A stretch of DNA of 64,000 nt from Pristiophorus japonicus (Eukaryota). The notes beneath the pieces are model-generated. The model did no database searches. It was not told the DNA's origin and saw nothing but the letters and a program-made list of their open reading frames with translations. The DNA is taken from assembly GCF_044704955.1 (NCBI RefSeq), contig NC_091987.1:26164001-26228000 (forward strand), given 5' to 3'. A program made the position numbers and the translations under genes. Positions 1 through 39,716 of the stretch are shown here, piece after piece; the stretch's first letter is position 1, and every line of letters begins with the position of its first letter.

Positions 1-1
1 C

Positions 2-128
2 CCCAAAATTGTTGCGGATGGAATTGAAGTGAAATGCACTGTGGAGGTAGCAGGTATCCCTCACATGTTCTGGTACAGACAATACCAGTGGAAGGAGCCG
101 CAGTTGATGTTTTACTCCCCAACTGTAA

Positions 129-130
<2 letters not shown>
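2..130 (+). pseudogene. TRBV: TCR beta-type V segment, 5' half only (FR1-CDR1-FR2), truncated by a (TCTA)n microsatellite
   Basis: Frame 2 reads PKIVADGIEVKCTVEVAGIPHMFWYRQYQWKEPQLMFYSPTVI: first Ig Cys, WYRQ motif and PQLMFYS. It runs directly into (TCTA)n with no YxC or RSS. The leader lies outside the window. Confidence 0.8.
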
Positions 131-191
<61 letters not shown>

Positions 192-2239: not shown

Positions 2240-2377
2240 AGCGTTATGGGGATCAGGCAGGCAAATGGAGCTGAGCCCAAGATCAGATCAGCCATGATGT
2301 TATTAAATGGCGATTCAGGCTTGGGAGGACAAATGGCCTACCCCTACTCCAACTGCTTATGTTCTTATATTCTTATG
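2240..2377 (+). mobile_element. CR1 3' terminal fragment that replaces the 5' part of the second V segment
   Basis: gatcagccatga...aatggcctac...cttatgttcttat tail, matching other CR1 3' ends in the window. Confidence 0.75.
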
Positions 2378-2379
2378 TA

Positions 2380-2590
2380 GAATGGAACAGGCTCTGGTAT
2401 TGGCAATACACCGGAAAAATTTTCATCTCCATCGGGTGTACTTATAGCTGCAGCAAATCTGAATATGGAGAGGGCTTCAAAATTGGATTTGAACTTACAC
2501 GAACCATGAGCAGTAAGATGTCAATTCCGAAGATCTGCGACATAAACCCGACAGACAGGATGGAGTATTTCTGTGCAGCCAATGATGCCG
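2380..2590 (+). pseudogene. TRBV: TCR beta-type V segment, 3' part (FR2-FR3-start of CDR3); FR1 missing
   Basis: EWNRLWYWQYTGKIFISIGCTYSCSKSEYGEGFKIGFELTRTMSSKMSIPKICDINPTDRMEYFCAAND: WYxQ motif and D-x-x-x-YFCAA motif (Cys codon 2572-2574), followed by a 23-RSS; first Cys absent. Confidence 0.88.
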
Positions 2591-2629
2591 AACAGCAGCG
2601 TAGATTCATCCGGCGCCCTGACAAAAACT
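2591..2629 (+). other. V 23-spacer recombination signal sequence with defective heptamer
   Basis: aacagca (CAC changed to AAC) + exactly 23 bp (2598-2620) + acaaaaact. Confidence 0.85.
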
Positions 2630-2714
2630 GTCCCAGAGAAACGTGCGGTACACTTGCCGCCTCAATCCCCTTATTATAGTTAATGCTCCGCTCGCTGCCC
2701 TTTGAATATAAATT

Positions 2715-7010: not shown

Positions 7011-7038
7011 TGTTATGGAGCCGAGGTGTATCACCGTG
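7011..7038 (+). other. 5' D 12-spacer RSS
   Basis: Nonamer tgttatgga (5/9 match to GGTTTTTGT) + 12 bp + heptamer caccgtg. Confidence 0.75.
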
Positions 7039-7052
7039 GGGACAACAGCTTC
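7039..7052 (+). CDS. TRBD: TCR beta diversity segment GGGACAACAGCTTC (14 nt)
   Basis: Begins with the GGGACA D-beta core; flanked by a 12-RSS and a 23-RSS; open in all three frames (GTTA, GQQL, DNSF). Confidence 0.93.
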
Positions 7053-7091
7053 CACGGTGCTTGAATTGCCGTCCCCGCTGCCACAAGAACC
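7053..7091 (+). other. 3' D 23-spacer RSS
   Basis: cacggtg + 23 bp (7060-7082) + acaagaacc (8/9). Confidence 0.92.
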
Positions 7092-7279: not shown

Positions 7280-7307
7280 AGTTCTTGTCGGGGGCTGCAC
7301 CACTGTG
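7280..7307 (+). other. J 12-spacer RSS
   Basis: agttcttgt + 12 bp + consensus heptamer cactgtg. Confidence 0.93.
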
Positions 7308-7353
7308 AATGCTGAGCAGCACTTCGGAGACGGGACCCGGCTGACAGTTTTAG
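7308..7353 (+). CDS. TRBJ: TCR beta joining segment, apparently functional (NAEQHFGDGTRLTVL)
   Basis: FGxG motif, 12-RSS, phase-1 donor G|GTGAGT at 7354, in frame with C exon 1. Confidence 0.95.
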
Positions 7354-7424
7354 GTGAGTCTCGCCAAATTACCTTTAAATTGAACCTGAGTGTTTTAGTG
7401 GCGATGGACGCTTCTTCTGTCTAG

Positions 7425-13525: not shown

Positions 13526-13613
13526 CATTTTTGCTACGTAGTATAATGCAGTGCGCATACAGGGAGTTATGACCCTTTGCATTTTGGGGCTGGTAGCAGA
13601 TTAACAGTTCAAG
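13526..13613 (+). pseudogene. TRBJ: J segment with RSS but mutated splice donor (HTGSYDPLHFGAGSRLTVQ)
   Basis: catttttgc + 12 bp + tgcagtg; coding 13554-13613 with FGAG; donor reads G|ATGAGT instead of G|GTGAGT. Confidence 0.85.
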
Positions 13614-14291
13614 ATGAGTCAAGATATGCCCACCACAATTAATCTTTATTTTGTGTTATATATATGTTTTGTCGTCTGTCGTGCCTGATCACTGGTACCA
13701 TTCTGGTCAATCTCCCCTTCACCTTCTCTGCTCTAAGGAGAACAATCTCAGCTTCTCCAATCTCTCCACATGGCTGAAGTTACTCCTCCCTGATTCCATT
13801 TTAGTAAATCTCCCCTATCCTTCTCTGCTCTACAGAGAACAACCCCAGCTTCTCCAGTCTCTCCACATAACTGAAGCCACTCACATCTGGGGCCATTCTG
13901 GTTAATCTCTACTGCAACCTTGTCATGGCCTTGGCATCCTTCTGCAAGTGTGGTGCCCGGAATTGGACCTGACACTCTGGCTGGGGCACAACTAGTGATT
14001 TAGAAATGTTTCGCATAATGAGCATTTTTAGTCTCAACAGTAATGCACTGCCAAAAAGGCCGGTGGAAGCAGATTCAATGTTAACTTTCAAAAGGGAATT
14101 GCATAAATGCTTGAAATGTACAGGGGCTGTAGGGAAAGAGTGAGCGAGTAGAACTAATTAGATATCTATTTCAAAAAGCCGGTACAGGACTATTGAGCTA
14201 AATGGCTTCCTTCTTGCTTTTGATTCTATGAACTTTTATTAAAAGATGGGAGGTGTCCCCTTCTGGGCACGGTGTAGATATGATGGTGCTT

Positions 14292-14371
14292 CGTTTTTGC
14301 AATGAGGCATTATAATGTGCACAATAACGATGAATCTTACTTTGATGATGGGAACAGATTAACAATGCTCA
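14292..14371 (+). pseudogene. TRBJ: Decayed J segment (HNNDESYFDDGNRLTML)
   Basis: cgtttttgc + 12 bp + taatgtg; coding 14320-14371; FGxG changed to FDDG; donor A|GCAAGT. Confidence 0.8.
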
Positions 14372-14624
14372 GCAAGTGAGGTTCCCACCTAGAAACAGTT
14401 ATTGTAACGGTATAATCAAAGCTGAGGTGGATTGTGGCAAAATATGCGAAACTCCAAAGCAATTTTGTCTTGAAATTGTCAAATCAATTGCAATATAGAT
14501 GGGCTTGATTTGATGTATCTTGCTAGAAGGAATAAGCTGGTTAAAATACTTTGGAAAATAAGGTCTACATGTGGTAGAGGAGCAAAAAGGATCTAAGGGT
14601 ACAAATACATAGTAAAGAACAAAT

Positions 14625-26789: not shown

Positions 26790-27128
26790 AGAAAGACCAA
26801 GAGGTCACGCACCCAAATGTGACCATTTTCGACCCATCAGACGAAGAGATTAACACCCGGAAGAAAGCCACCATTGTGTGCCTGGCCAGTGACTTCTTTC
26901 CGGACTTCGTGAAGTTCTCCTGGATGGTGAACAAGGAGAAGATCGAAGACAAAGATGTCTTGACCGACAAGCCGGTTAAGGACGAGGCAGGCCGCTACTA
27001 CAGTGTGGCCAGCAGGGTAACTGTCCCCGTGGAAGAATGGGGCCGGAAGGAATATTCATGCCATGTGACACATTACAGCAAAGATGGGGAAGAGGTGCAT
27101 CGAGAGGCCAAGACCAGCAGTAAGAGGG
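26790..27128 (+). CDS. TRBC: TCR beta constant region exon 1 (Ig C1 domain)
   Basis: Acceptor tccacacag|; (E)KDQEVTHPNVTIFDPSDEEINTRKKATIVCLASDFFPDFVKFSW...YYSVASRVTVPVEEWGRKEYSCHVTHYSKDGEEVHREAKTSSKR; matches the C-beta motifs PS.EI...KAT.VCLA..F.PD and YS..SR; donor G|GTGAGT. Confidence 0.95.
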
Positions 27129-28028
27129 GTGAGTTTCTTCAGTTCCTGGAACTACCTGCGCCAAGGATCATTCAGGTGGGAGGGCGGGGAGGGGGGGGGG
27201 GGTGAGGTGTTGCGGGGTCATTCTCCCCGAACGCCACCCATGTTGAGTGCAAAGCTGGTTTCATCCCCTGCCCAATATTGACTCCAGTGGTGCATCTAAT
27301 CGGGTGGTAGTGTAAAAACATTGTTGCACCCGATCGCATCCGGTCCCCAACAAGCAGAATAGATTAAAGTTGCACACATAAGTTTGCCACTATCAGCGTA
27401 AGACTGTTAAAGTACCGAAAAATAATTAAAAAAATTAATTGAATCATTTAAAATCCTGTTAAATAAGCTAAGTTTATTTTTAGAACCTTTAAATATATGT
27501 AACTTTATTTTTCAAAATATTAAATTTTTGCTTTAAATAATTAATGAAATTCCATTTTATTAATTTGAAATATTTGATGTTTTTAATAGATATTTTTCGT
27601 GTTTCAGTGTTTCGGGGGATATTGCCATTCATACTTATGGTGGTTCCGTATATACAGAATTACCATAATTATTGGATGGGGATTGCCTCTACTCTGATAG
27701 GTTGGGGCAGGCCACGTGTTCCTTGTGAAGCATATGGTTCCTGAGCTACTTGGGCCTCTAAGAAGGCCTTGGCGTGGAGGCCCAGGACCGCAAGTCACCG
27801 AAATTCTGGGGCCACCAGCAACTTTCATGGTAATTTCCCGACCCCAAATTCTGAGCCATTATTACCCTCCTCACTATTACGAGGCTTACAACTGTTTTTG
27901 TCTTGTAGGTAAATGCACAACTCTATGTGTGAAGAAGTCGATTGTACCCTATGCTACTGGTATAAATTGAAAGTTGCATTTTATGCACAAATAATTAAAG
28001 TAATTTCTCTTTTTTTTATTGCTTACAG

Positions 28029-28046
28029 GCATCTGTGAAGGGACTG
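28029..28046 (+). CDS. TRBC: TRBC exon 2 (18-nt hinge with interchain Cys; GICEGT)
   Basis: Polypyrimidine tract + ttacag|, donor G|GTAAGC, phase 1-1; an 18-nt Cys mini-exon is typical of TRBC. Confidence 0.9.
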
Positions 28047-28169
28047 GTAAGCAGATCCAATATTGTATACGTTTGCACTAGGCTCTTTTTGTCTCTCGTT
28101 CTCTCTTATACACACTTGTCTTTTTAACTTGTCTTGAACAGGTACAAAAATTATCAAAAACGCTCATGG

Positions 28170-29110
28170 AATCATAGAATCACTTAAATTTACATCATGT
28201 TTTCAGCGGCTGACCAAGAGCTATCCAGCCCAATCCCACTTTCCAGCTCTTGGTCCGTAGACCTGTAGGTTACGGCACTTCAAGTGCATGCCAAGTACTT
28301 TTTAAATGTGGTGCGGGATTCTGCCTCTACCACTCTTTCAGGCAGTGAGTTCCAGACCCCCACAATGCTCTGGGTGAAAATAATTACCCTAAGTTTCCCT
28401 CTACACAACCTACCAATTCCTTTAAATCTTGGTTGTTGACCCTGCTAAGGGAAATAGGTCCTTCCTATCCACTCTAACTGTCATAATTTTATACACCTCA
28501 ATAAAGTCTCGCCTCATCTCATCTGCTCCAAAGTAAACAACCCCAGCCTATCCAAACTTTTCTCATAGCTATAATTCTCCAGTCCCGGCAACATTCTCGT
28601 AAATCTCCTTTGTACCCGCTCTAAAGCAATCACATATTTCCTATAATATGGTGACCGGAACTGCACACAGTACTCTAGCTGTGGCCTAACTAGTGTTTCA
28701 TACAGTTCAAACATAATCTCCATGCTCTTGTATTCCATGCCTCGGCTAATAAAGGCAAGCATTCCGTATGCCTTCTTAACCACCTTATCAACCTGGTCTG
28801 CTACTTTCAGCGTTCTATGGACATATACTCCAAGGTCCCTTTGTTCCTCTACACCTCTCAGTGTCCTACCAGTTATTGTGTATTCCCTTGCTTTGTTAGC
28901 CCTCATCAAATGCATTACATCACTCTTCTCTGGAGTGAATTCCATTTGCTACTGTTCTGCCCACCTGACTAATTCATTGATATCTTCCTGCATTCCGCAG
29001 CTTTCTTCATTATCTACCACACAGCCGCATTTAGTATCATCAGCAAACGTCTTAATCATACCCCTACGTTCAAGTCTAGATCATTAATGTAGACCACAAA
29101 AAGCAGTGGC
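28170..29110 (-). mobile_element. CR1 fragment in TRBC intron 2
   Basis: 143-aa ORF with RPQLEYCVQF. Confidence 0.85.
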
Positions 29111-31131
29111 CTAAAGAGTGTTGTAAGCAGTTCCAGAACTGCCTCCCTGCTCTTGTATTCGATGCCACCATGTGAACCTTTATATCTAAAGGACTAGAAT
29201 ACAAAGGGTTAGACACAATGATACAGCTCTACAAACGCAGGTTAGACTGCACCTGGAGCACTATGTTCATTTCTGGGTAACACACCTTGGGAAGGATACA
29301 TTGGCCTTGGAAGGAGTGCAGCGTAGATTTATTGGAATGGTATCTGGACTCCAAGGCTTAAATTACATGGAAATATTGGATCTGAAATTGTGGGCAAATG
29401 CCTCCGACCTGAAATATTTCTACGAAATTACCTGGTGGTCCTGGAGGAGCGTGGGATTCCAGTGGGGAGGCATTTTCTTCCCGCACTGCAGAGTGTGCTC
29501 CCGTCCTCCAGGTTCCCATGCAGAAGGCACAGTCACGTGTGACTGCTCAGCGAATCAGGTACAATATTCCACAGCTTTTGCATTAATAGCAATGAGAATT
29601 CCGTATCTACCTGTTCTCATTGCTATTAATGAGAGAAAAACCCAAACACACTAAACACATGTAATAATAAATAAAAAACACATCTTGCATAATTAAAATT
29701 AATTAAATTTAAAGTTAATAAATATCAGAGAATTCTTTTTACGAGTTTTTAAAAAGGTTTTTAATTATGGTTCAAAATAAATGTAACGTAGTGGGCAGTG
29801 TATTTCAAAATAATATGTTTTTTTAAAATTTAATTTTATTACATTTTTGTATGTTTTTAAAATCTTAAGCCTGTAAAATTGGGCTATACACCTGCTTTTA
29901 TCAGGCGCAAGGATTACACTTACTGGGGTTGTATTACCTGGAATTTAGAAGATTAAAGGGTGATTTGGTCGAATTTAAACGATATTCAAGGGATCTGATA
30001 GGATAGTTAGAGAGAAAATATTTCTGCTTCTTGGGGAGTCTAGGAGTATGGGGGGGGGCATAGTATAACAATTAGAGCCAGACCTTTCAGGAGTGAAGTT
30101 AAGAAACACGGCTGCATGCAAAGGGTGTTAGATGATTGGAACTGTATCAACATACAGCTGTCTTACATGAAATGACAGGCATTTGATAGAATCACAGGGG
30201 GATAAATTCATTACCTCCTCTTTTGGAACCGGTAACATTTGAGAGGCTGGACATTAGACTGTCCAGACCCTCATGATTCTGAACACATCTATCAAATCGC
30301 CTCGCAGCCTTCTCTGTGCCAAGGAAAAAATCGCAACTTCCCAGTCTATACATGTACGTGAAGTCCTTCATTACTGGATTCATTATCCTAAATCTTTTAT
30401 GTACCTTCTCTAAGGTCTTCACATCCTTCCTGAAATGCAATGCACTGAAATGGAGTCCCTACTTTAAAGATCTGAGTAGTGGAAAGCTGTTTCCAACCTA
30501 GACTTGCTTGGGGCTGGGGGGTGGGGGGGGGGGCTTTCTTTATTAGTACACTGCTTTTTTTAAAGACGAAAGAAGATTAAATCATATACTGTTAGTATTT
30601 ACCGTGCCCGTGACCTAACATGTAACAAGATTATCACACATCACTCCTGTGCTCGCTGACCTATTTTGGCCGCTGATTTGACAACAGCGCAGTTTCAAAA
30701 TTCTCATGCTCATCTTCGAAACTGTCCATGGCCTCATGCCCTCCCTATCTCTGTAACACTCTCCATTCCTACACTCCTCCAAGATCTCTGGGCCCCTCCA
30801 ATTTTTCCCGCATGCACCTCCCCGATTTTGATCGTTCCACAATTGGCGGCCGTGCCTTGAACTGCCTGGGCCCTGAGGTCTGGACTTCCCTCCCTGAACT
30901 TCTCCACCTCTGCCCCTCTGCCTTTCCTCCTTTACGACTGCCGAAAACCAACCAAACATTTGATCACCTGTCCCAGTATCTCCTCACGTGACTCGGTCTC
31001 AATTGTTGTTCGATATATGCTTCGGAGAAGTGCATGGAAAAGGTGAAACGCAAGTTATGTTTTACTGAGATTCGCTGCAGGAAATCGGATTTGGCGTCAA
31101 TAATTGTTTTCCTCTTTTCAATGCCTTCTAG

Positions 31132-31241
31132 CGGAGCGGGTTCAAAAGCAACAAGTTCTGGCGAAAACAACCTATTTTTTACTCATCTCCAAGAGCTTCC
31201 TTTACATGGCCATAGTCACCATCCTGGTGCTCAAGGTGAAG
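31132..31241 (+). CDS. TRBC: TRBC exon 3 (connecting peptide and transmembrane: AERVQKQQVLAKTTYFLLISKSFLYMAIVTILVLKVK)
   Basis: Acceptor tgccttctag|, phase 1 to 0, Y-x-LL-x-x-K-S-x-x-Y antigen-receptor TM motif with intramembrane Lys, donor AAG|GTATGA. Confidence 0.93.
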
Positions 31242-31499
31242 GTATGAAAAATATAGAGGCTAGACACTTTGCTCCACAGTAGAATAGTTCTCATTTCTTC
31301 TTTCCCAATGTTCAACCATCTCTTCGTTTTTAGACCGCATTAAGGGGCATTCCCCCAGGCAATGCTCTACCTACTGTCCCCGATCCAAGTCAGCCATGCA
31401 CGAGGAAAGTGAAATAGACAGGGCGATGGAGACCACTATTTGACTGCGATAAGTTTTGACACAATTGCACTACAGTTGATCTGGATCCCGCATCAAGGC

Positions 31500-32520
31500 G
31501 CTCACAATGTTGTCCCCTCCCCAATAAGGGAGAGACAGATTGAGGGAGAATGATAGCGGGGCACAGAGAGGGACAGCGAGAGACAGATAAAGAGTGAGTG
31601 AGACAGAGGGAGAGAAACCTACAGCTAGACAGAGAGAGGGAGAGAGTGACACAAATACACACGTATATATAAAGAGAGAGCGAGAGAGAGGGAGAGAAAG
31701 ACAGACAAATACAGAGATACAAACAGGCAGACAAAGAGATAAATATATATAGAGAGAGCGACAGATACAGAGAGTGTGAGGGAGGCAGAAAATGTTAGGG
31801 ATAGTGAGGAAGACACAAAGAGAGAGAGAGAGAAAGAAGGAAAGTGAAGCAGAGAGAGAGAGAGAGAGAGACAGAAAGACAGAGTTTAATAGACAAAGAA
31901 AGAGAGCCAGAAGAAGAGGGAGAGAGTGACATAAAGTCTGATATAGACAGAAAGAAAGAGGGGAAAGTGGGTGAGACAGAAAGAAAAGTGACATATACAG
32001 AAAGAGAGAGAGCTGGGGACAGTGAGAATGAGACAGCGAGAGACAGAGCCGGAAAGAGAGTGTTAGAGATAGAAAGAAAGAGATTCATAGAGAGAGAGAG
32101 ACATATAAGGAGAGATGGCGGGAGAAATACAAATAGATTTAGACAGGTAGATGAGAGAAAGTGGGAGACAGAGAGAGAGAGTGTGGAAGAAACAGAGAGA
32201 TATAGAGAGACATATACAGACAAATTGAAAATACAGAACGAGAAAGAAAGAAAGACAGAATGTAAGAAAGGCAGAAAGAAAGAGAGGTTTAAGAAAGAAA
32301 GTACGAAAGACCAAAAAAATGATATAGACAAGTAAATGAAAGGAAAGAAACAGGTAGACACAAAAAGTGGGAGAGACGGAGATAGGGAGAAAGAGGGTGA
32401 AGGAGATACAGTGATGGAGGGAAGGAGCGCCAGAGAGGGGCGATTATGTGTGAAAGAGAGACAGACAGAATAACAGAGAGTGTAGGGTGGGGGGGGGGGG
32501 AGGTGGGGATGGAGGGGAAA
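31500..32520. repeat. GA/GAAA-rich low complexity
   Basis: Direct reading. Confidence 0.9.
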
Positions 32521-35047
32521 TATAATAATTAATTTGATTTGCATTTGATTCCAGCGTTGTTCATCGCACCACCTACCCTTATAGAAACTTGATCAGTGCA
32601 AGGATAATGTCTACACTTGACCAATGTGAACTTGGCATCCGAGTAGAAGTTTAAGACCAGAGTTGAAATTATCAAGCTTTGGACATTAACTAGAAATAGC
32701 TTTGCCGGCACAGCACCTGTGTCTTCTACTTTTTTTATTTATCTGTTCAAGGGATGTGGGCGTCGCTGGCAAGCCTTTATTGTCCATCCCTAATTGCCCT
32801 TGACAAGGTGGTGGTGTGGCCCCTTAAACAACTGAGTGGCTTGCTGGGCAATTTCAGAATGCAGTTGCTGTGATTTTGGAGTTCATATATAAGCCAACGC
32901 GGGTAAGGATGATAGATTTCCTTCGCTAAAGGACATTCGTGAAGCAGATGGGTTTTGTACGACAACCCGGTAGTTTCATGGTCAAAATGATTAAATAGAC
33001 AGAGAGAGAGACAGAGATGGAGACAGCTATTTTTCCATGAAACGTTTTGATTCACTGCTGGGAGACAAAACCAACAATAATACACCAAAAGTGATCTGAA
33101 TCCCACGTCAAGTTTTTTTCAATTTTCTCCCCTCCCCAATAAGGGAGAAACAGATTGAGAGAGGAACAGATAAAGAGTGTTAATTCCAGATTCGTTAACG
33201 GAATTTAAGTTCCCCAGCTGTTTAGGTGGTATTTGAGTTAATGACCCCGGATCATTATTCCAGGCCTCGAAATTACTAGTCAGTAACATAACCACCATTC
33301 TACCGTAACTCATACTAAAATGCATCGGACCAAGTTTGTAGTTAATCCTCACATTGCTGTATGTTGGTGCTTCATTCGCCTACTTTCCATCTAGTTAACT
33401 GTGTGCTCCACGCTCCCACTTTAAACATCAATTGACTTCTACCTGAGATGGCATTGAATCATTGAGACTCATTTCAATGTATCCTTCAATCCCACAGCAC
33501 AGGAGGAGACCATTCGCTCCATCGCACATCTGCCAGCTTTTTGAAAGAGCTATCTGGTTAATCCCACGCTCCTGCTCTTTACCCATAGCCCAGCAAACTT
33601 TTCCCCTTTCAAGTATCTATACAAATCCCCTCTTAACATTTACTATTGAGTCTGTTTCCGCAGTCCTCATCTCTCCCTGTGTTTTTTTTAGCCAATTATC
33701 TCAACCCTATATCCACCCCGACTGTTCCTTCATAATGGGTGGGCGGGGCGGGGGTTGGGAATCAGAAACTTAACTGGACCAGCCACATAAATACTGTGGC
33801 AACAAGAGCACGTCAGAGGCTGGGTATTCTGCGGCGTGTGTCTCATCTCCTGACTCCCCAAAGCCTTTGCACCATCTACAAGGCACAAGTCAGGAGTGTG
33901 ATGGAATAGTCTCCACTTGCCTGGATGAGTGCAGCCATAACAACACGCAAAAAGCTCGCCAGCGTCCAGGGCAAAGCAGCCCGCTTGATTGGCACCCCGT
34001 GTTCCAACTTGAACATTCATTCCCCCACCACTGGCGCATCGTGGTTACAGTGTGTACCAACTACAAGATGCACTGCAGCATTTCGAACAATTCATATTTG
34101 GCAGCATCTCACAAACCCGTGACATCTACCGGCTAGAAGGATAAGGGCAGCAGGCGCATGGGAACATCATCGCCTGCAAGTTCCCCTCCAAGTTACAAAC
34201 TATTGTGACTTGGAAATATATCGCCATTCGTTCATCGTCGCTGAGTAAAAATCCTGGAACTCCCTCTCTAACAACACACTGGTAGCACCTTCTCAACACG
34301 GACTGCAGCGGTTCAAAAAGGCGGCTAACCCGCCTTCTCAAGGGCAATTAAAGATGGACAATAACTGCTGGCCTTGCCAGCAATGCCCACATCCCAGGAA
34401 CACATTTAAAAAAAATGCAATGCTCAATGAATTATTCCATTGAAAGTTGGCATCTAGGTACAGCAGGCGGTGAAAAAGGCAAATGGTATGTTGGCCTTCA
34501 TAGCTAGGAGATTTGAGTATAGGAGCAGGGAGATCTTACTGCAGTTGTACAGGGCCTCAGTGAGGCCTCACCTGGAATATTGTGTTCAGTTTTGGTCTCC
34601 AAATCTGAGGAAGGACGTTCTTGCTATTGAGGGATTGCAGCGAAGATTCACCAGACTGATTCCCGGGATGGCAGAACTGTCATATGAGGAGAGACTGCAT
34701 CGACTGGGCCTGAATTCACTGGAGTTTAGAAGGATGAGAGGGGATCTCATAGAAACATATAAGATGCTGACCGGGAGTGGATGCACGAAGAATGTTGCCG
34801 ATGTTAGGGAAGTCCAGAACCAGGGGACATAGTCTAAGGATCAGGGGTAAGCCATTTAGGACTGAGATGAGGAGAAATTTCTTCACTCAGAGAGTTGTTA
34901 ACCTGTGGAATTCCTTACCGCAGAGAGTTGTTGATGCCCGTTCATTGGATATATTCAATATATACAATATTGAATATATACAATATATTGGCTCTTACGG
35001 CTAAAGGGATCAAGGGATATGGAGAGAAAGCAAGAAAAGGGATACTG

Positions 35048-35340
35048 AGCGGCAGTTGGTGAGAGGCGGGAGCGGCCTATAAAGGCCCAGCGGGAGATCG
35101 AGAGCCAGCGGCAGTTGGTGAGAGGCGGGAGCGACCGATAAAGGCCCAGCGGGAGATCGAGAGCCAGCGGCAGTTGGTGAGAGGTGGGAGCGACCTATAA
35201 AGGCCCAGCGGGAGATCGAGAGCCAGCGGCAGTTGGTGATAGGCGGGAGCGACCTATACAGGCCCAGTGGGAGCTCGAGAGTCAGCAGCAGTTGGTGAGA
35301 GGTGGGAGCAGTGTCGGAGTGGCCTATAAAAGGCGTACCG
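35048..35340 (+). repeat. 59-bp tandem monomers in the LINE 5' UTR
   Basis: Units start at 35048, 35107, 35166, 35225, 35284 (agcggcagttggtgagaggcgggagcg.cctataaaggccc...). Confidence 0.9.
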
Positions 35341-38300
35341 GTGCAGCTACAGCGGGAGAGAAAGCAAAATAGAAGTAGAAAGGAATCAAAAGGTGACGTC
35401 ACAGCCAATGGGGTAAGTGATTGGCTGGTGATTGGTGAGTAGCTTTTCTTTTAATTTTTTATATCAGTAAGTGAACTGTAACATTGTTATTACCAATTTA
35501 AGGGTATCTAAGGGTTAAGGCATTGCAGGAGAGCTCGGTCACGTGATATGCTCCTCCTGTACCATGTGGGAACTCAGGGACACTTCCGGTGTCCCTGAGG
35601 ACTACGTGTGTGAGAAGTGTATCCGCCTCGAGCTCCTGATGGTCCGCATTGCGGAATTGGAGCTGAGGGTGGATTCACTCTGGAGCATCCACGATGCTGA
35701 GAATGACGTGAGTATCACGTGTAGTGAGTTGGTCTTACCGCAGAAGGGTCCACAGCCAGATAGGGAATGGAAGACCAGCAGGAAGAGCAGTGCAAGGAAG
35801 GTAGTGCAGGGGTCCCCTGCGGTCATCCCCCTGCAAAACAGATACACCGCTTTGAGTACTGTTGGGGGGGATGACTCATCAGGGGAGAGCAGCAGCAGCC
35901 AAGTTCATGGCACCATGTCTGGCTCTGCTGCACAGGAGGGCAGGGAAAAGAGTGGGAGCACGATAGTGATAGAGGATTCGATGGTGAGGGAAATAGATAG
36001 GCATTTCTGCGGCCGCAACCGAGACTCCAGGATGGTATGTTGCCTCCCTGGTGCAAGGGTCAAGGATGTCTCAGAGCGGGTGCAGGACATTCTGAAATGG
36101 GAGGGAGAACAGCCAGTTGTCGTGGTGCACATTGATACCAACGACATAGGTAAAAAAAGGAGATGAGGTCCTACGAAACAAATTTAAGGAGCTAGGAGCT
36201 AAATTAAAAAGTAGAACCTCAAAAGTAGTAATCTCGGGATTGCTACCAGTGCCACGTGCTAGTCAGAGTAGGAATCGCAGGATAGCGCAGATGAATACGT
36301 GGCTTGAGCAGTGGTGCAGCAGGGAGGGATTCAAATTCCTGGGGCATTGGAACCGGTTCTGGGGGAGGTGGGACCAGTACAAACCGGACGGTCTGCACCT
36401 GGGCAGGAGGGGAACCAATGTCCTAGGGGGAGTGTTTGCTAGTGCTGTTGGGGAGGAGTTAAACTAATATGGCAGGTGGATGGGAACTAATGCAGGGAGA
36501 CAGAGGGAGACAAAAAGGAGGCAAAAGCAAAAGACAGAAAGGAGATGAGGAAAAGTGGAGGGCAGAGAAAACCAAGGCAAAGAACAAAGAGGGCCATTGT
36601 ACAGCAAAATTCTAAAAGGACAAAGGGTGTAAAAAAAAACAAGCCTGAAGGCTTTGTGTCTTAATGCAAGGAGTATCCGCAATAAGGTGGATGAATTAAC
36701 TGTGCAAATAGATGTTAACAAATATGATGTGATTGGGATTACGGAGACGTGGCAACAGGATGATCAGGGCTGGGAACTCAACATCCAGGGGTATTCAACA
36801 TTCAGGAAGGATAGAATAAAAGGAAAAGGAGGTGGGGTAGCATTGCTGGTTAAAGAGGAGATTAATTAATGCAATAGTTAGGAAAGACATTAGCTTGGAT
36901 GATGTGGAATCTATATGGGTAGAGCTGCAGAACACCAAAGGGCAAAAAACGTTAGTGGGAGTTGTGTACAGACCTCCAAACAGTAGTAGTGATGTTGGGG
37001 AGGGCATCAAACAGCAAATTAGGGGTGCATGAAATAAAGGTGCAGCAGTTATAATGGGTGACTTTAATATGCACATAGATTGGGCTAGCCAAACTGGAAG
37101 CAATACGGTGGAGGAGGATTTCCTGGAGTGCATAAGGGATGGTTTTCTAGACCAATATGCCGAGGAACCAACTAGGGGGGAGGCCATCTTAGCCTGGGTG
37201 TTGTGTAATGAGAGAGGATTAATTAGCAATCTCATTGTGCGAGGCCCCTTGGGGAAGAGTGACCATAATATGGTGGAATTCTGCATTAGGATGGAGAATG
37301 AAACAGTTAATTCAGAGACCATGGTCCAGAACTTAAAGAAGGGTAACTTTGAAGGTATTAGGCGTAAATTGGCTAGGATAGATTGGCGAATGATACTTAA
37401 GGGGTTGACTGTGGATGGGCAATGGCAGACATTTAGAGACCGCATGGATGAATTACAACAATTGTACATTCCTGTCTGGTGTAAAAATAAAAAAGGGAAG
37501 GTGGCTCAACCGTGGCTATCTAGGGAAATCAGGGATAGTATTAAAGCCAAGGAAGTGGCATACAAATTGGCCAGACATAGCAGCGAACCTGGGGACTGGG
37601 AGAAATTTAGAACTCAGCAGAGGAGGACAAAGGGTTTGATTAGGGCAGGGAAAATGAAGTACGAGAAGAAGCTTGCAGGGAACATTAAGGCGGATTGCAA
37701 AAGTTTCTATAGGTATATGAAGAGAAAAAGGTTGGTGAAGACAAACGTAGGTCCCCTGCAGTCAGAATCAGGGGAAGTCATAACGGGGAACAAAGAAATG
37801 GCAGACCAATTGAACAAGTACTTTGGTTCAGAATTCACTAAGGAGGGCACAAACAACCTTCTGGATATAAAACGTGTCAGAGGGTCTAGTAAGGAGGAGG
37901 AACTGAGGGAAATCTTTATTAGTCGGGAAATTGTGTTGGGGAAATTGATGGGATTGAAGGCCGATAAATCCCCAGGGCCAGATGGACTGTATCCCAGAGT
38001 ACTTAAGGTGGTCGCCTTGGAAATAGCGGATGCATTGACAGTCATTTTCCAACATTCCATTGACTCTGGATCAGTTCCTATCGAGTGGAGGGTAGCCAAT
38101 GTAACCCCACTTTTTAAAAAAGGAGGGAGAGAGAAAGCAGGGAATTATAGACCGGTCAGCCTGACCCCAGTAGTGGGTAAAATGATGGAATCAATTATTA
38201 AGGATATCATAGCAGCGCATTTGGAAAATGGTGACATGATAGGTCCAAGTCAGCATGGATTTGTGAAAGGGAAATCATGCTTGACAAATCTTCTGGAATT

Positions 38301-39555
38301 TTTTGAGGATGTTTCCAGTAAAGTGGACAAAGGAGAACCAGTTGATGTGGTATATTTGGACTTTCAGAAGGCTTTCGACAAGGTCCCACACAAGAGATTA
38401 ATGTGCGAAGTTAAAGCACATGGGATTGGGGGTAGTGTGCTGACGTGGATTGAGAACTGGTTGGCAGACAGAAAGCAAAGAGTAGGAGTAAATGGGTACT
38501 TTTCAGAATGGCAGGCAGTGACTAGTGGGGTACCGCAAGGTTCTGTGCTGGGGCCCCAGCTGTTTACATTGTATATTAATGATTTAGACGAGGGGATTAA
38601 ATGTAGTATCTCCAAATTTGCGGATGACACTAAGTTGGGTGGCAGTGTGAGCTGCAAGGAGGATGCTATGAGGCTGCAGAGTGACTTGGATAGGTTAGGT
38701 GAGTGGGCAAATGCATGGCAGATGAAGTATAATGTGGATAAATGTGAGGTTATCCACTTTGGTGGTAAAAACAGAGAGACAGACTATTATCTGAATGGTG
38801 ACAGATTAGGAAAAGGGAAGGTGCAACGAGACCTGGATGTCATGGTACATCAGTCATTGAAGGTTGGCATGCAGGTACAGCGGGCGGTTAAGAAAGCAAA
38901 TGGCATGTTGGCCTTCATAGCGAGGGGATTTGAGTACAGGGGCAGGGAGGTGTTGCTACAGTTGTACAGGGCCTTGGTGAGGCCACACCTGGAGTATTGT
39001 GTACAGTTTTGGTCTCCTAACTTGAGGAAGGACATTCTTGCTATTGAGGGAGTGCAGCGAAGATTCACCAGACTGATTCCCGGGATGGTGGGACTGACCT
39101 ATCAAGAAAGACTCGATCAACTGGGCTTGTATTCACTGGAGTTCAGAAGAGTGAGAGAGGACCTCATAGAAACGTTTAAAGTTCTGATGGGTTTGGACAG
39201 GTTGGATGCAGGAAGAATGTTCCCAATGTTGGGGAAGCCCAGAACCAGGGGTCACAGTCTGAGGATAAGGGGTAAGCCATTTCGGACCGAGATGAGGAGA
39301 AACTTCTTCACCCAGAGAGTGGTGAACCTGTGGAATTCTCTACCACAGAAAGTAGTTGAGGCCAATTCACTAAATATATTCAAAAGGAAGTTAGATTAAG
39401 TTCTTCCTACTCGGGGGATCAAGGGGTATGGCGAGAAAGCAGGAAGGGGTACTGAAGTTTCATGTTCAGCCATGAACTCATTGAATGGCGGTGCAGGCTA
39501 GAAGGGCTGAATGGCCTGCTCCTGCACCTATTTTCTATGTTTCTATGTTTCTATG
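35048..39555 (+). mobile_element. Near full-length young CR1 LINE in TRBC intron 3, nested in an older CR1 3' end (34435-35047 and 39556-39648)
   Basis: Tandem 5' repeats; ORF1 remnant (CxxC...CxxC finger plus SGNH-esterase-like CLPGARV/VVVHIDTNDIG, 35543-36467, frameshifted); ORF2 EN (CLNARSIRNK, GDFN, SDH) with lesions; 781-aa open stretch 37054-39399 with RT motifs; (TTTCTATG)n tail. Confidence 0.95.
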
Positions 39556-39683
39556 AATGATCAGCCATGATCTTACTGAATGGTGGTGCAGGCTCGAAGG
39601 GCCAAATGGCCTACTCCTGCACCTATTTTCTATGTTTCTATATTTCTACATTATTGACACAATCTTTTTCCTTCCTGTTCCAG

Positions 39684-39716
39684 TTCTCGGGAAAGCTGGT
39701 GAAAGGATTTGATTGA
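39684..39716 (+). CDS. TRBC: TRBC exon 4 coding part (cytoplasmic tail FSGKLVKGFD*)
   Basis: Strong acceptor ctttttccttcctgttccag|, phase 0 continuing exon 3, short basic tail and TGA; unique sequence follows. Confidence 0.82.
   Translation, partial: FSGKLVKGFD

Follow-up and report, generated by a model that had tools for sequence, protein, structure and literature searches.

The gene at the center of this locus looks like a shark T-cell receptor (TCR) beta constant region, yet much of its length is unlike the published horn shark C-beta. Is it simply the beta chain of this animal, or does it represent a separate chain? The window, meaning the whole 64,000-nucleotide stretch of the sawshark (Pristiophorus japonicus) genome that was analysed (G000:C11:26164001-26228000), contains the complete constant (C) gene, and positions given below without a contig name are counted from its first letter. 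We consider it probable that this gene, hereafter type A, is a second, deeply diverged beta-type C, intact and spliced, that faces the ordinary beta gene (type B) tail to tail and occurs in several shark orders. Its product probably arises by V-D-J1 rearrangement, pairs with TCR-alpha, and marks a subset of T cells with a fixed J.

An intact and spliced beta-type constant gene

All parts of the type A gene lie on the forward strand. Exon 1 (26790-27128, 339 nt) encodes an Ig C1-set domain (Pfam PF07654, E 5e-19) and includes the motif KATIVCL at 26864-26884. Exon 2 (28029-28046) is an 18-nt hinge carrying the interchain cysteine. Exon 3 (31132-31241, 110 nt) specifies the connecting peptide and a membrane span with one lysine (YxLLISKSxLY), seen here as YFLLISKSFLY at 31173-31205. 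Finally, exon 4 (39684-39716, 33 nt) encodes the cytoplasmic tail, whose terminal GFD and stop codon occupy 39705-39716, and is followed by a 3´ UTR that is 77% conserved in a second copy on contig C1166. This is the four-exon plan of a TCR C gene (C1 domain, short cysteine hinge, membrane span and tail), and a sequence-only reading of this DNA had described it as beta-type on the strength of the 18-nt hinge exon, KATIVCL, the membrane motif and the GFD tail. Each of these was found in place. Every acceptor has AG, the donors read GTGAGT, GTAAGC and GTATGA, and the spliced frame is open over 166 residues. The membrane span contains the one lysine and no arginine, whereas TRA and TRD of the same genome carry both.

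Exons 1 through 3 are spliced. A 915-nt contig from a public run (depth 33.7; one run, kind unrecorded) is identical to exons 1 and 3 and joins them via the hinge exon. It extends 42 letters 5´ of exon 1, approximately the length of J1, and 404 letters past exon 3, and these extensions probably correspond to J1 and exon 4, respectively. The contig may represent a germline J-C transcript, and no rearranged V-D-J1-C transcript was seen. An alternative exon 1 donor at 27120 is ruled out, as the contig splices at 27129. Within the hinge exon (28029-28046) the contig differs from the genome by a single letter (Ile to Val), reflecting an allele or another individual.

A search for homologs of near-equal length to type A gave no match, and a PDB search with its C domain yielded a listing swamped by antibodies. 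A search for Pfam PF09291 was likewise empty, with an equally blank control, and in the Atlas the type A C falls in generic TCR C clusters only. By visual inspection, long copies of LINE-type retrotransposons, in which endonuclease and reverse-transcriptase frames can be recognised, take up 34440-39540 and much of 40000-64000, filling intron 3 of type A and the space that separates the type A and type B genes.

Comparison with canonical shark C-beta

A search with the type B exon finds the horn shark protein AAA61563.1, named 'T-cell receptor homolog', at 59% identity, along with sevengill and white shark genes (11 matches among 147 candidates). In addition, a published C-beta primer for the nurse shark (PMC2435157) encodes CKSILY, which is the type B motif, where type A has SKS. 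Together, these matches identify type B as the published shark C-beta type.

Measured against this reference, type A proves to be as divergent as the sequence-only reading had suggested. It is 35% identical to AAA61563.1 (a horn shark cDNA protein) and 36-39% identical to the two type B genes of the sawshark (39% for that on C11), and type B is no nearer to it than are the mammalian TRBC sequences (34-35%). Divergence peaks in the latter half of the Ig domain and in the connecting peptide: identities to AAA61563.1 number 22/45 in the N-terminal half of the domain, 13/68 in its C-terminal half, 4/19 in the hinge and connecting peptide, 8/22 in the membrane span, and 5/12 in the tail. Twelve positions are fixed differently in the two types, and 32 are fixed alike in both.

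The plan of the chain is nevertheless shared with canonical shark TCR-beta, including the four C exons, the hinge cysteine, a YxxLIxKSxxY span with one lysine, an FD tail end, a D segment starting GGGACA with 12/23 signals, common V families, and residence in the same locus. What distinguishes type A, besides an identity of 33-39%, is its 18-nt hinge exon (21 nt in type B), the absence of a membrane cysteine, 0-1 N-glycan sites (0-4 in type B), a D without a G run, a single usable J versus at least 11-13, and its position on the opposite strand.

Two facing arms, present twice

Searching with type A exon 1 returned one close paralog, on C1166 at 79%, and two further matches at 39-40%, on the minus strand of C11 at 26.244 Mb and on C1166 (best 150 of 604 candidates scored). 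The reverse search from type B returned the same four C exons (150 of 580 candidates scored). The C exons among the scored candidates are thus two of type A and two of type B, forming tail-to-tail pairs on C11 and C1166. The type B gene is read from the opposite strand, with its stop codon ~28 kb from type A, and on both contigs the layout is V-D-J-C(A) facing C(B)-J-D-V. The type B arms hold at least 13 (C11) and at least 11 (C1166) J motifs, plus a D with a G run, a conserved TRBD feature according to PMC11754216. V segments number 36 on the A arm and 23 on the B arm of C11, and 43 and 88, respectively, on C1166. One family, whose members end in CAW (family 0), supplies 55 of the 79 A-arm V segments and 45 of the 111 B-arm V segments, where its members are distal. 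Two B-proximal families (43 V segments) are found on B arms only and are missing from both A arms.

On C1166, type A is intact as well; it shares 81% identity with the copy in the window and is likewise served by one J. Both the A pair and the B pair differ by a dS of 0.29-0.33, as expected for a single block duplication, and dN/dS between the two type A copies is 0.34. These values point to one duplication of the entire block and to purifying selection on type A afterwards. A dS of ~0.3 for both C pairs also rules out C1166 as a haplotype artefact.

Genuine TRG and TRA plus TRD loci reside elsewhere in this genome, on C1 and C23, respectively, so type A is not a mis-identified TRG or TRA/D gene. 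A gamma locus would have V and J but no D segments and sit at the TRG site, and here a D is present. An alpha or delta chain would have both arginine and lysine in its span and lie at the TRA/D site, and type A has neither property.

As for the genes that flank mammalian TRB, the DBH/MOXD family had no match on C11 and the nearest Eph exon is ~30 Mb off. Aldehyde dehydrogenase exons (L117 and L118) border the A-side end of the shark locus at G000:C11:25960500-25969900, where the amniote flank is DBH-like/Eph. Roughly a dozen scattered and mostly broken copies of a family-0 TRBV segment were noted far from the TRB loci, on C9 at ~203-224 Mb and on C3678 and C3827. A lone divergent C1 domain with a TCR or light-chain look and a long branch (L086) is located at G000:C22:9727380.

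A single usable J

The type A segments in the window, all on the forward strand, begin with the 5´ part of a broken V at 1..142 (C11:26163975-26164142), which starts 26 bases before the window and is cut off by a microsatellite. The last V before D is another broken remnant (2362..2639) that ends YFCAAN and has a decayed 23-spacer signal. The D segment (7011..7091, coding 7039-7052) comprises 14 nt with a GGGACA core, is open in all three frames, and carries a 12-spacer signal 5´ and a 23-spacer signal 3´. J1, NAEQHFGDGTRLTVL, follows at 7280..7359 (coding 7308-7353) with a 12-spacer signal and a GT donor, and is the sole usable J. Pseudo-J2 (13526..13619), ending in YDPLHFGAGSRLTVQ, has the donor AT rather than GT but still aligns with type B J segments over 54-59 nt at 75-76% DNA identity. 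In pseudo-J3 (14292..14378), which ends YFDDGNRLTML, the FGxG motif, heptamer and donor have all decayed. With 23-spacer signals on the V segments, this is the beta-type signal pattern.

A nearly identical J1 lies upstream of the type A C on C1166 and in both catsharks, whose type A gene models contain the J NAEQYFGEGTRLTVL, almost the same as J1 of the window. The 36 V segments of the C11 A arm are spread across ~165 kb, with 12 having an open frame and a good signal and the other 24 being broken or without a good signal. Another V family, distinguished by YWWNWY and a CVA end, is unusual; its members have good 23-spacer signals and occur on both C11 arms, at C11:26001989, 26084295 and 26390049. 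The D core GGGACAAC is reportedly a published horn shark sequence, although our literature search found no such paper.

Distribution and phylogeny of type A

Type A orthologs were identified in Scyliorhinus torazame and S. canicula (3 matches among 67 candidates, 65-67%; 68% identity to catshark over the whole C), in the whale shark (59%) and in the horn shark (69% over 67 residues). The horn shark model departs from the domain after those 67 residues, and no hinge is included in that of the whale shark, so both copies may be dead or incorrectly modelled. In the databases, the catshark and horn shark proteins bear generic names only. Neighboring accessions of the horn shark A and B gene models, together with contigs of equal length, suggest the same linkage as in the sawshark. 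The species with type A (sawshark, catsharks, whale shark and horn shark) span the galeomorph and squalomorph sharks. No ray or chimaera ortholog was present among the best 150 representatives, a list that does not by itself establish absence.

Phylogenies were built from 29 rows, in which the bony vertebrates are two mammals and five teleosts only; a second tree added TRA and TRD and omitted both a long-branched C1 domain and the horn shark row, which is partial. Type A forms a clade (6 rows, 5 species) with support of 100/99, or 100/100 in the second tree, on a stem of ~1.27, beside a type B clade (5 rows, 4 species) at 98/97, or 90/82. None of the teleost TRBC sequences groups with type A in these trees. 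Grouping the four C genes of the sawshark genome together is rejected (p-AU 8e-59). Type A does not nest with AAA61563.1 along the species tree, nor is it the only TRBC of its genome, and it has orthologs in four further sharks. The proposal of an anciently duplicated TRB lineage, first raised in the sequence-only reading, therefore holds back to at least the common ancestor of the sawshark and the galeomorph sharks.

Deeper relationships are less sharply drawn. A sister relationship of A and B is the best placement (83/90), whereas placing A outside B plus bony TRB (p 0.17), with bony TRB (0.09), with TRG (0.36) or with mammal TRB (0.11) is not rejected, and the base of the tree collapses when TRA and TRD are added. 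As the C tree alone leaves beta versus gamma undecided, type A is filed as beta-type from its D, its recombination signals, its J and V types, its exon plan and its linkage.

A proposed second beta chain

If type A operates as its segments imply, RAG would first join D to J1 and next add a V to the DJ1 product, in each case by deletion given the 23-12/23-12 spacers, and J1 would be spliced onto C exon 1. The hinge cysteine would link the chain to TCR-alpha, and the single membrane lysine would recruit CD3 as in any beta chain, consistent with the single-lysine rule for beta and gamma spans given in PMC11754216. Diversity would come from the choice of V and from the junctions, with the end of CDR3 held constant.

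The lysine, together with a complex prediction, hints at TCR-alpha as the partner. Type A C modeled with the sawshark TCR-alpha C domain scores 0.53 versus 0.01 for the best control, which is weak support: of 78 solved complexes, 5 scored 0.60 or less, as did all 4 passing mismatches, and likeness to solved C-alpha/C-beta pairs can itself yield such a pass. The runs agree in at least 92% of contacts, with partner pLDDT of at least 75. A single lysine is equally compatible with pairing to TCR-delta, and the complex prediction does not choose alpha over delta.

The arrangement probably originated when a TRB V-D-J-J-J-C block was duplicated in inverted orientation, before the divergence of galeomorph and squalomorph sharks. 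Thereafter, all J segments but one would have been lost and the second half of the C domain remodelled, over the stem of 1.27. This remodelled half points to an altered signalling or partner surface and, combined with a CDR3 end fixed by one conserved J, suggests a distinct T-cell subset.

The main rival to a distinct subset is that type A is a functionally redundant second C-beta isotype, comparable to catfish C-beta1 and C-beta2, which offers a second chance at beta rearrangement and has diverged by drift. We regard this as a serious though clearly less likely explanation. In its favor, catfish TRBC genes are 36% identical and newts retain a divergent TRBC (PMC10464911 and PMC12698447), V family 0 is common to both arms, and 32 positions are fixed alike in the two types. 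Redundancy accounts poorly, however, for a single J that is nearly unchanged across sharks when the B arm has at least 11-13, for a long type A stem followed by slower change, and for the two B-proximal V families that are missing from both A arms.

A grander reading, which we rate as improbable, holds that type A is a TCR chain class as old as the jawed vertebrates, in which two facing V-D-J-C arms are ancestral and both persist in sharks, bony vertebrates lost D, J and C of the second arm but kept the inverted TRBV30/TRBV31 as a relic (TRE possibly being a survivor), and the chain defines a semi-invariant T-cell lineage of sharks. Seen from type B, the A-arm V genes are downstream and inverted, just as human TRBV30 and mouse TRBV31 lie inverted behind the canonical C (PMC2275272). 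The shark genes differ in having their own D, J and C, and in belonging to a V family also present on the B arm. For one of four single A-arm V queries, the best single-domain PDB match is the MEL5 beta chain (71 bits; 60 rows listed), which uses TRBV30 according to PMC5887915. With the three other A-arm V segments, a B-arm family-0 V, a V of a B-only family and a profile, the lists consisted mostly of multi-domain scFv entries with cut-offs of 45-84 bits. The connection of A-arm V genes to TRBV30 is a lead only; a TRBV30-like V exclusive to the A arm is ruled out by the occurrence of family 0 on the B arm.

Still more doubtful is the idea that type A replaces TCR-gamma and pairs with TCR-delta (or the NAR-TCR delta chain), or that it descends from a gamma-like ancestor inserted in the beta locus. 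The single-lysine span common to beta and gamma chains and the unrejected union with TRG are compatible with it, and the stretch singled out in the sequence-only reading matches TRG at 13/34 positions and type B at 9/34. Against this stand the D with its 12/23 signals, the beta-type J and V, the TRB position, a hinge, membrane span and FD tail in common with type B, an overall identity of 31% to TRG versus 35-39% to type B, and the presence of a real TRG on C1. We give similarly little credence to a transcribed relic whose C stays intact but which rearranges rarely, the arm mainly supplying inverted V genes to the ordinary beta locus. Decay has reached two of the three J and the majority of A-arm V segments, rearrangement by inversion is known for inverted V genes of other vertebrates (PMC10464911) and rearranged reads did not appear, yet the dN/dS of 0.34, the D, J1, signals and splice sites intact in both copies, the identity to catshark over the whole C, and the spliced contig all speak against such a relic.

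Relation to other TCR systems

The proposed second beta chain resembles the squamate TCR-epsilon (TRE), described in PMC11754216 as an additional V-D-J-C unit derived from TRB, with one D, one J, a single membrane lysine and predicted alpha pairing; the inverted TRBV clade is the sister group of its V genes. TRE is unlinked to TRB, has few V genes, and occurs in hosts without gamma-delta T cells, whereas the type A unit faces TRB, has 36-43 V genes, and its host keeps TRG and TRD. This comparison is with TRE as described; TRE is defined by C orthology and an RTN4RL2/SLC43A neighborhood, and beside the shark locus only the aldehyde dehydrogenase exon was recognised.

Two complete and opposite V-D-J-C units, with the pair present twice in a genome, are also reported for salmonids and pike (PMC10464911 and PMC9247247). 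Those units are arranged head to head with near-identical C genes within a pair, in contrast to the tail-to-tail shark units, whose C genes share 36-39% identity. The divergent TRBC of urodeles and catfish C-beta1/C-beta2 (PMC10464911 and PMC12698447) likewise provide two deeply diverged TRBC types per locus, 36% identical in catfish, but there as tandem D-J-C units on one common V array. Divergent TRBC, opposite-facing TRB pairs and TRE are thus already known, and to these an intact, spliced second TRB-type C lineage of sharks is added here. We found no second shark C-beta in the open literature covered, which included portions of PMC10322711, PMC5931798 and PMC12227049 and one elephant shark supplement; key shark papers and most supplements fall outside that scope.

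The shark T-cell work cited here relies on one C-beta, and its probes and primers would likely miss cells that express type A. As a second beta chain that is conserved and limited to a single J, type A nominates a directly testable candidate subset of unconventional T cells within the most ancient lineage to possess T cells, and would add a beta-side counterpart to NAR-TCR, TCR-mu and TRE. The two-armed shark locus also provides a concrete model of the ancestor from which the inverted V genes behind C-beta could derive. In the horn shark, near-identical type B C regions occur on at least four contigs (P0013-P0017), which suggests a multiplied TRB locus in that species.
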